A stretch of 64,000 bases of DNA from an uncultured Caulobacteraceae bacterium (GTDB lineage Bacteria > Pseudomonadota > Alphaproteobacteria > Caulobacterales > Caulobacteraceae): the NCBI GenBank assembly GCA_964451265.1, contig CAYVHP010000077.1:3237-67236 (forward strand). Reading direction: 5' to 3'. Numbering within the stretch: the first letter of the stretch is position 1; the number at the start of each line of letters is the position of its first letter. Shown one piece after another: positions 35,598 to 51,012 of this stretch. Made by a program: the position numbers and the translations under genes. The notes below the pieces were generated by a model, which ran no database searches, was not told the DNA's origin, and saw only the letters and a list, made by a program, of their open reading frames with translations.

Positions 35598-35720
35598 TTG
35601 AACAAGTTGAACCACGAAGAGCACGAAGATCACCAAGAGCTTGGTGTTCCTTCGTGTCCTTCGTGAGCTTGGTGGTTCAATAATCTTGCCCCCGGCTTGC
35701 GCCGGGAGGCGGTGATGAAC
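35598..35720. repeat. composite palindromic intergenic repeat, copy A
   Basis: Left arm TTGAACCAC-GAAGAGCAC-GAAGATCAC-CAAGAG. Right arm AGCTTGGTG-T-TCCTTCGTG-TCCTTCGTG-AGCTTGGTG-GTTCAATAAT. This is followed by CTTGCC and the small hairpin CCCGGC-TTGC-GCCGGG (35691-35706). Near-identical to copy C. Confidence 0.75.
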
Positions 35721-44194: not shown

Positions 44195-44202
44195 TCGCTA
44201 TG

Positions 44203-44316
44203 GTCGTCATCCCACGGGCGGCCGAAGGCCGAACCGGGGGACCCAAGCCACGCTTGAAATTGCCAAACTCGCTTGGGTCCCCCGGTCCGCCTTGCAGGCG
44301 GCCGGAGGATGACGGC
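44203..44316. repeat. long imperfect hairpin of the GTCATCC...GGATGAC type
   Basis: Perfect 16-bp inner arms ACCGGGGGACCCAAGC (44233-44248) and GCTTGGGTCCCCCGGT (44271-44286) around a 22-nt loop. They are flanked by roughly 30-bp imperfect outer arms starting GTCGTCATCC and ending GGATGACGGC. Confidence 0.55.
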
Positions 44317-44320
44317 CTTT

Positions 44321-44386
44321 GGTCGGCTTCGTGGTCTTCGTGAGCTTCGTGGTTTAATAAACTTGCCGCCGTGAGGTCTGCGGGCC
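44321..44386. repeat. half copy (right arm only) of the 9-bp-module repeat, copy B
   Basis: GGCTTCGTG-GTCTTCGTG-AGCTTCGTG-GTTTAATAAACTTGCCGCC matches the right arm and tail of copies A and C. No left arm is present. It abuts the VOC gene stop. Confidence 0.6.
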
Positions 44387-50890: not shown

Positions 50891-51012
50891 AGATTATTGA
50901 ACCACCAAGCTCACGAAGATCACCAAGAGCGCGTTGTTTCCTTGGTGTCCTTGGTGAGCTTGGTGGTTCAATAATCTTGCTCCCGGCTTGCGCCGGGTGA
51001 GACCTGATGAAG
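50891..51012. repeat. composite palindromic intergenic repeat, copy C (best preserved)
   Basis: Perfect 22-bp inverted repeat ATTATTGAACCACCAAGCTCAC (50893-50914) with GTGAGCTTGGTGGTTCAATAAT (50954-50975). The inner modules are imperfect. This is followed by CTTGCT and the hairpin CCCGGC-TTGC-GCCGGG (50982-50997). Confidence 0.8.

Follow-up and report, generated by a model that had tools for sequence, protein, structure and literature searches.

Short mosaic repeats of bacteria such as SPRITE, Correia elements, ERIC, the BIME/RIME mosaics and MITEs (the miniature transposable elements with inverted repeats) carry terminal inverted repeats, measure 75-250 bp, lie between genes, and have a mosaic build, variable interiors and a terminator-like character. 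In the repetitive extragenic palindrome (REP)/REPIN systems, tens to hundreds of intergenic palindromes, based on a REP of 20-40 bp with a GTAG (or CGTC) tag, are accompanied by one single-copy partner gene that is flanked by the repeat and encodes a Y1 HUH transposase, the REP-associated tyrosine transposase (RAYT), and the repeats persist by long-lived vertical inheritance at orthologous sites 3' of genes, in copy numbers that vary among sister species (PMC3733652; bioRxiv 10.1101/2021.07.10.451892). The Ssn/SRM design, published in 2025, places a small GIY-YIG nuclease gene, whose product has demonstrated activity, between single short CGTC-tagged hairpin repeats (CGTCATTCCC...) that are also dispersed genome-wide, an association found across phyla (PMC11893778); the CGTC-tagged REP class (PMC3733652) appears to correspond to these SRM/NTS repeats. 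MITEs and terminator-like repeats are reviewed in PMC10969869, which also cites the Caulobacter CIR (Chen and Shapiro 2003), long intergenic inverted repeats defined by CcrM GANTC sites. Here we describe a family of phased inverted-repeat elements represented three times in a 64,000-nt stretch (the window) of contig CAYVHP010000077.1 from an uncultured Caulobacteraceae bacterium, together with the gene to which the family belongs.

In the window, the elements reproduce, as foldbacks without the gene, the two terminal arms of a GxxExxY cassette (PF13366/TIGR04256). About 80 copies in the genome keep the arms, and where the gene would be they have a short loop, a 65-nt module or else an Ssn-type foldback nested between the arms. 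The design occurs across phyla; the family is an expansion of it that is old, restricted to the genus and vertically persistent. Its heptamers are under strong constraint, and its elements hold terminator positions and bear terminator-like tails. We found no published description of the arms, REP/RAYT and Ssn/SRM being the nearest known systems, and literature searches on GxxExxY, PDDEXK_3 and PF13366 yielded no account of them. The family shares with REP/REPIN-RAYT the tens to hundreds of intergenic palindromes, the single-copy partner gene flanked by the repeat, the vertical persistence at orthologous sites, the copy number that varies among sister species and the position 3' of genes, but its partner has a PD-(D/E)XK fold rather than that of a Y1 HUH transposase, and its arms are built from three to four phased heptamers with a TTGAAC terminus rather than from a tagged palindrome. 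With Ssn/SRM it shares a small nuclease gene set between hairpin repeats that are also dispersed genome-wide, as well as the cross-phylum association, whereas the pairing of GIY-YIG with a single short hairpin is replaced here by PD-(D/E)XK and inverted phased heptamer arrays, and the GxxExxY protein, unlike Ssn, is uncharacterised. By the features that define Ssn/SRM, the heptamer arms fall outside that class, their partner being PF13366, and the inner module of one window element (copy B, below) falls within it. Unlike MITEs, the family has no transposase-bearing parent insertion sequence (IS) and no target-site duplication that we could find, and its ends are repeated heptamers conserved across phyla. 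The Caulobacter CIR are likewise long intergenic inverted repeats, from the same bacterial family, but they differ by their GANTC sites, of which there are 2 in 7,736 nt of our elements against about 25 expected; identity with CIR was ruled out on this depletion.

A sequence-only reading of the window had described the three elements (copies A, B and C) as composite palindromes, and all of them are present where it placed them. The modules, the termini TTGAACCAC and GTGGTTCAA, the hairpin tip CACCAAG-AG-CTTGGTG, the tail AATAATCTTGCxCCCGGCTTGCGCCGGG and the distal TGATGAA match its description. Their parts are as follows, with the strand given where one was assigned.

35607-35639: copy A, left arm of 33 nt, TTGAAC followed by CACGAAG-AG, CACGAAG-AT and CACCAAG-AG.
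35640-35680: copy A, right arm, four inverted heptamers (CTTGGTG, CTTCGTG, CTTCGTG, CTTGGTG) and then GTTCAA, with the end GTGGTTCAA at 35680.
35681-35719, forward strand: copy A, tail T1, with the T-rich tract TAATCTTG, the hairpin CCCGGC-TTGC-GCCGGG at 35691-35706 and TGATGAA at 35713-35719.
44202-44317: copy B, inner module, a 116-nt GTCATCC...GGATGAC foldback in place of the missing left arm.
44325-44357: copy B, right arm only, three CTTCGTG heptamers and GTTTAA.
44358-44383, forward strand: copy B, diverged T1-like tail, TAAACTTGCCGCCGTGAGGTCTGCGG, a 70% match.
50897-50971: copy C, core hairpin, in which a loop separates the left arm, with three heptamers, from the right arm, with CTTGGTG heptamers.
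50972-51011, forward strand: copy C, tail T1, with TAATCTTG, the hairpin CCCGGC-TTGC-GCCGGG at 50982-50997 and TGATGAA at 51005-51011.

The core hairpin of copy A thus spans 35607-35680, with its tail reaching 35719, and at its tip the innermost right-arm heptamer pairs with the third left-arm heptamer. In copy C the palindrome extends further, to 50891-50977 (AGATTA/TAATCT). Copies A and C have the common tail TAATCTTGCxCCCGGCTTGCGCCGGG...TGATGAA, and their RNA folds, with z scores of -6 to -11 on either strand, form one long interrupted hairpin followed by a small tail hairpin. In copy B, the repeats that surround the small GIY-YIG (Ssn-like) genes of the same genome recur, without a gene, as the inner module.

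The evidence that ties these arms to a gene comes from the source assembly (3.37 Mb, 197 contigs, 64.6% GC), in which a single PF13366 gene is present, at C116:519-887 (PF13366, 137 bits; TIGR04256 'GxxExxY', 141 bits). In what follows, G000 denotes the source genome, other G numbers its relatives, C a contig and L an extracted locus. The gene sits exactly between family arms at 479-516 and 888-917, and its sense strand reads ..AACCACCAAGCTCACGAAGATCACGAAG-ORF-TGA-aCTTCGTGATCTTCGTGCCCTTCGTGGTTCAA, ORF being the open reading frame. The suggestion that the repeats might have a cognate gene was therefore borne out, but that gene is a single GxxExxY PD-(D/E)XK gene and neither a RAYT nor an IS transposase. 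Among 40 relatives, PF13366 genes occur in 13 genomes of seven genera, and inverted heptamer arrays lie on both sides of about 18 of 20 PF13366 loci (seven Caulobacteraceae genera), as they also do at further loci of the class and of other phyla; Caulobacter vibrioides, examined as a control, lacks PF13366 genes. Which heptamer is present depends on the gene copy (CACSAAG, CACAAAG, CGCCAAG, CGCAGAG, CACAGAT, CACGAAC or CACGAAA), the 3' arm always matches it, and several such heptamer 'dialects' occur within one genome, G016.

The arms also bear on the coding sequence itself. In 15 of the 20 cassettes with recognisable arms, the 5' heptamers run in phase with the ORF (CAC = His) and encode (His-Glu/Gln-X)n, giving N-termini such as LNHEDHKEHEG and M-ENHEPHEPHER (loci L122, L127, L063, L106, L115, L117, L138-L140 and others); where the 5' arm is out of phase, an ATG follows the arm. 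The view that the repeats have no coding context consequently holds for the window copies and fails for the gene-bearing cassettes, and the 9-bp period may also reflect codons. In canonical cassettes the frame takes in the TTG of TTGAAC, which could be a start codon. Separately, exact GAAC-N7-GAAC and GTTC-N7-GTTC motifs, which we take to be the alpha-proteobacterial form of the LexA box, lie roughly 60-90 nt upstream of the GxxExxY ORFs at L123 (G008) and L134 (G014). These are two SOS-box-like motifs in about 30 upstream regions, against about 0.1 expected, and none was seen at the G000 gene; they hint that some cassettes may be SOS-regulated.

We next consider the design of the arms, for which a profile was built from 108 seed arms. 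Each arm, 33-42 nt long, consists of TTGAAC and three to four CACSAAG heptamers in 9-bp phase. Conservation is 94-100% at the letters of TTGAAC and CAC-AAG; G or C stands at the fourth heptamer position, and the 2-nt spacers are free. Within elements, pairing between the arms holds for 94-100% of heptamers, and the spacers match at chance (e.g., 21 vs 20.1 expected), which makes the stem a series of 7-bp helices split by 2x2 mismatches, that is, an array of sites and not a continuous helix. The 9-bp module of the sequence-only reading is therefore better described as a conserved 7-mer plus two free bases. Beyond GTTCAA, on both strands, lies a T-rich tract with the consensus T-W-W-T-Y-T; the 8 nt after GTTCAA hold 4.1 T against a background of 1.4, and 72% of arms have at least four T.

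Scanning the whole genome with the profile returned 135 arms, which resolve into approximately 82 elements, in agreement with the proposal of a dispersed REP/MITE-like palindrome family; the reversed-pattern control gave 0 in this genome and 0-4 per genome in 300 others. Twenty-eight elements are short hairpins (<=95 nt), 11 have the 65-nt interior, 14 have a GTCATCC-type interior and 29 are single arms, 20 of which adjoin a GTCATCC module. As 13 elements touch contig ends, the true count is higher. Regional clustering is weak, with 13 neighbour gaps below 5 kb against 8.0 +/- 2.6 expected.

Gene positions were taken from a crude home-made codon-bias caller (2,769 genes, 80% coding, some genes missed). 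By these calls, 30 elements lie in convergent gaps (43%), 33 in tandem gaps (48%) and six in divergent gaps (9%), against a genome-wide baseline of 16%, 68% and 16%, and in tandem gaps the element mostly lies 5-50 nt past the upstream stop. A bias toward the 3' side of genes is thus real and strong. The restriction to convergent gaps is not: it describes the three window copies, each of which is set in such a gap, and does not extend to the genome. In tandem gaps the T1 tail showed no orientation bias relative to the neighbouring genes (8 vs 5). By the same calls, the upstream gene stops on the TGA inside the element's TTGAAC at C47:3652, C99:654 and C108:14016, so that the repeat may supply the stop codon at a few sites.

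The terminator or protein-binding role raised by the sequence-only reading is plausible, and the elements probably double as bidirectional terminators. In a simpler explanation nothing more is needed, namely that the elements are host-selected bidirectional terminator or 3'-untranslated region (UTR) hairpins, that the GxxExxY gene is a passenger in one loop, just as Ssn-type foldbacks came to lie in others, and that spread and uniformity arise by recombination or gene conversion with no dedicated enzyme. The position 3' of genes and the T-rich tails on both strands speak for this explanation, as does the fact that the loops accept other inserts. Yet the arms travel with the gene: genomes in which the family amounts to little more than the gene have arms mainly around it, and the PF13366 copies of other genera have matched heptamers of their own. 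Moreover, a structural role alone would permit compensatory change along the whole stem, whereas six letters are fixed, one position co-varies and the spacers are unpaired, and identical arms occur across phyla at GC contents from 39% to 73%. On balance we regard this explanation as unlikely, albeit one that the comparison of orthologous sites, presented below, keeps in serious contention.

Instead, our preferred reading, which we judge moderately probable, is that the elements are REPIN-like gene-less derivatives of the nuclease cassette that also act as bidirectional terminators. Under this reading, the phased heptamer array would be the recognition site of the GxxExxY protein, which may have seeded the family and may keep its copies uniform, much as RAYT is linked to REPINs and Ssn to SRM repeats. 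The host would tolerate or keep the copies, which in 3' UTRs, as a long interrupted hairpin with a U-tract, could serve as bidirectional terminators and protectors of 3' ends.

The protein encoded by the cassette is compatible with such a role. In an alignment of 29 homologues, Y30, D67, K79 and F109 are invariant and E27 and E77 near-invariant; these conserved residues make up the GxxExxY motif and a D...ExK signature, all of which are kept in the G000 copy. AlphaFold, supplied with the 29-homologue alignment, returned a model with a pLDDT (predicted local distance difference test) of 96.4, compared with 43 for a single-sequence prediction, and the best Foldseek matches of the model were Cas4 SSO0001, alkaline and lambda exonucleases, and Hjc, all at E >0.01. 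A PDB sequence search found no relative, and a 2012 superfamily survey listed PDDEXK_3 as 'unknown'. To judge from the model and the conserved residues, the GxxExxY protein looks like an active nuclease with a minimal PD-(D/E)XK fold.

Comparison of orthologous sites was made with one genome per species and fragmented assemblies. The most informative relative, G002, is a metagenome-assembled genome (MAG) whose flanks are 85-95% identical to those of G000. In 17 cleanly aligned orthologous arms of these two genomes, differences were counted at 2 of 306 fixed heptamer letters (0.7%), compared with 4.9% for TTGAAC, 37% for the spacers, 49% for the S position and about 10% for the flanks. The changes at S are concerted, with whole arms reading CAAG in G002 and GAAG in G000, and S co-varies between the two arms across phyla (p = 2e-5 and 6e-8). 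Taken together, the invariant letters, the covariation of S and its concerted change point to sequence-specific constraint on six letters, pairing at the seventh and a conversion-like turnover; the concerted change of arms, which looks like gene conversion, also speaks for the host-selected explanation.

About 17 of the 22 G002 elements lie at sites that are also occupied in G000, and some sites are occupied as well in G003, G005 and G006, where the flanks are 74-88% identical. The site of copy A is filled in G000 and G002; no family element is present there in G006 and a metagenome relative, which have short gaps, or in G003, which has unrelated hairpins, and a metagenome scan for the site recovered three contigs, none with the element there. 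Across the genus, the number of BLAST hits to the hairpin per genome is 46, 33 and 14, down to 0-4. Seven of the nine genomes have one PF13366 gene, and the two lacking it have 0 and 2 hairpin hits; in the low-copy genomes G001 and G008 the hits include the gene's own arms.

Several observations weigh against our preferred reading. Judged by their shared sites, the element copies are old, and differences between species take the form of gap replacements, arm deletions and interior swaps. Movement was not seen: at the sites compared, between species at least ~10% diverged, there was no duplication, no clean insertion or excision and no clean pair of filled and empty sites. G005, which has no PF13366 gene, keeps an intact hairpin at an orthologous site, and in the G002 gene (L133, C1:141961-142305) a TAT to TAG change falls at the invariant Tyr of GxxExxY, with at least 25 hairpin loci kept in that genome. 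Hairpins that persist where the gene is dead or absent indicate that the upkeep of individual copies is independent of the nuclease and favor host-level selection; host-level function would then carry much of the load, and for this reason the account in which the elements are terminators and the gene a passenger keeps appreciable weight. The G000 gene itself has no ATG or GTG start, the candidates being TTG codons without a clear ribosome-binding site, and a terminator scan of copy A with a strict, simple consensus found no canonical terminator. The family is also nearly absent from plasmid records, with matches in 6 of 72,556, all of them non-mobilisable large replicons, and has no match among phage records, so that neither collection points to an obvious vehicle for cross-phylum spread.

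The arm design reaches far beyond the genus. A scan of one genome per species with the exact 23-base arm pattern, TTGAACCACSAAGNNCACSAAGNNCAC, matched more than 115 contigs (at least) from many phyla at 39-73% GC, where the chance expectation was estimated at <1. The matches listed include Planctomycetota, Verrucomicrobiota, Acidobacteriota, Chloroflexota, Bacteroidota, Thermodesulfobacteriota and Alpha-, Beta- and Gammaproteobacteria; in most of those listed a mirror arm lies 1-175 nt away, and in a few of them the largest interiors (371-393 nt) are GxxExxY ORFs reading ...HRxLGPGLLESxYExCL. In an even sample of 301 Alphaproteobacteria, only three genomes have the array CACSAAGNNCACSAAGNNCAC in multiple copies, with 107 occurrences here and 11 and 9 in two genomes of one other genus; seven genomes gave single hits, and the reversed control gave ~0. 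All three multi-copy genomes carry PF13366 genes, one of them beside a CACGAAG hairpin. When the heptamer label is mapped on a tree of 29 proteins, it proves clustered (6 changes vs 9.8 in shuffles); in that tree, proteins with CACGAAG arms from Pirellulales and from Gammaproteobacteria group as sisters (support 100/97), a placement that suggests transfer between phyla.

The genome also houses other repeat systems. Six small (~98-aa) GIY-YIG genes are each flanked by hairpin repeats, and this arrangement matches the published Ssn/SRM design (PMC11893778) and the class of REPs with a CGTC tag (PMC3733652). Repeats of the CGTCATCC type flank at least two of the six loci, and the GTCATCC foldback of copy B matches the GIY-YIG flanking repeats CGTCATCCCACGG...GGGGGACCCAAGC. 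These modules lie in or beside the heptamer hairpins far in excess of chance, given that 21 of 45 two-ended GTCATCC-type foldbacks touch an arm and 0.46% of the genome lies that near one. Two RAYT-like (PF01797) genes, at C168:36054-36371 and C100:14611-14934, have REPs of their own (GGGGACACACACCACCC... and GGTGACAGTGCATTTAATTG) that are unrelated to the arms, so at least three kinds of system combining a nuclease or transposase with repeats are present. The GIY-YIG genes are located as follows.

C60:3792-4013: GIY-YIG gene.
C185:15184-15405: GIY-YIG gene.
C142:24628-24852: GIY-YIG gene.
C16:1774-1995: GIY-YIG gene.
C14:182-400: GIY-YIG gene.
C152:829-1050: GIY-YIG gene.

The resemblance of the two layouts raises the possibility that GxxExxY works as Ssn does, as a site-specific (perhaps single-strand) nuclease, with hairpins that mark or modulate transformation, recombination or repair and spread passively, without transposition. 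By analogy with Ssn/SRM, where a small nuclease gene likewise lies in its own hairpins amid tens to hundreds of dispersed copies (PMC11893778), this would suit the presence of six Ssn-like genes with CGTCATCC repeats in the same genome and the exact SOS-box-like motifs upstream of two relatives' genes. In fold and repeat design, however, the system differs from Ssn/SRM, and the hairpins persist with a dead or absent gene; we consider this explanation rather improbable.

Two transposase-based explanations bear even less weight. The terminal inverted repeats, small size, intergenic position and many copies would fit a classical MITE moved in trans by the DDE transposase of an IS whose terminal inverted repeats match TTGAACCAC, but PF13366 is the only gene found between such arms, here and at all related loci examined, and no target-site duplications were evident at the sites compared, on which grounds an IS-derived MITE was rejected. 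We know of no IS ends that resemble multi-site heptamer arms, and we regard this origin as very improbable. Palindromic intergenic repeats with a single-copy partner, in a genome with two RAYT-like genes, might equally be taken for a REP/REPIN family served by a RAYT (Y1 HUH transposase). That assignment is contradicted by the unrelated REPs flanking both RAYT-like genes, by the absence of a GTAG/CGTC tag on the arms and by the PF13366 gene that the arms flank; we rejected identity with REP/RAYT and give this explanation next to no credence. Identity with an Rfam family was ruled out by 0 window matches at the gathering score; in E-value mode the window gave sub-threshold generic hairpin (miRNA precursor) matches.

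The outer and inner modules of the elements vary more freely than the arms. The outer tail T1, a CCGGC-NNNN-GCCGG hairpin, is present at 34-50 arms genome-wide, and a second tail, T2, is TTTTCTATTCGCTGCGCGGGC; the two usually occur one per side, in either orientation relative to neighbouring genes, and their gain and loss between species at the same site mark them as accessory modules. Eleven hairpins have the 65-nt interior module (..GGCGGCGCTATC..GGATCGCGAAGCGAGAAT..GATCGCGCATTTGCGCGATCC) in their loop, placed either way round with respect to the outer tails, and cassettes of another genus (L193, L195) have a related GCGAAGCG-containing module that separates the arm from the gene. Sites of the 65-nt module are as follows.

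C73:1033-1162: 65-nt module site.
C26:9474-9603: 65-nt module site.
C112:1913-2042: 65-nt module site.
C131:39152-39281: 65-nt module site.
C134: 65-nt module site.
C140: 65-nt module site.
C173:3371-3500: 65-nt module site.
C176:13793-13923: 65-nt module site.

The changes seen between species at orthologous sites were of the following types.

C127: loss of exactly one arm.
C107: GTCATCC module gained or lost in the loop.
C162 and C39: arm replaced by a GTCATCC module.
G000 C65:13380-13587: whole gap taken up by a palindrome (TCCACCGCTTGCGGGGGA...TCCCCCGCAAAAGCGGTGGA) that is terminator-like, similar in length and unrelated, where G002 (L190) has a heptamer hairpin.
G000 C152:628-1308: whole convergent gap taken up by a complete GIY-YIG cassette with its own repeats, where G002 C25 (L182:1501-1569) has a 69-nt heptamer hairpin.

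The last of these, a swap of an entire gap, suggests that both element types compete for the same niche. Of the six genes that flank the window copies, five had Pfam matches (DUF4170, TonB-dependent receptor, glyoxalase, GCS2 and DUF427); the sixth, which is the 75-aa ORF upstream of copy A, matched no Pfam family, yet is conserved in relatives.

It is possible, though on the whole doubtful, that the GxxExxY cassettes represent a distinct nuclease-repeat class distributed across phyla. In such a class, the protein would read 7-bp sites at 9-bp spacing, a spacing forced by the coding of (His-Glu/Gln-X)n, and would cut at the arms, so copying gene-less foldbacks into terminator positions, where they would persist vertically as REPINs do; several orthogonal dialects would coexist per genome, and transfer between phyla would be occasional.

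These findings have consequences both for annotation and for the study of the protein family. The roughly 80 hairpins per genome explain spurious His/Glu-rich ORFs and many contig breaks, and they probably mark transcript 3' ends. Two repeat systems that nest in and replace one another within a single intergenic niche provide a natural system for studying competition between elements. PF13366/GxxExxY is a large cross-phylum family with no solved or characterised member, and CACSAAG at 9-bp spacing with a TTGAAC end gives it a directly testable DNA target. If the protein reads the array, it would constitute a third independent case of a small nuclease with its own dispersed hairpins, after RAYT/REP and Ssn/SRM, and the family may be a source of programmable array-reading DNA binders or cutters.

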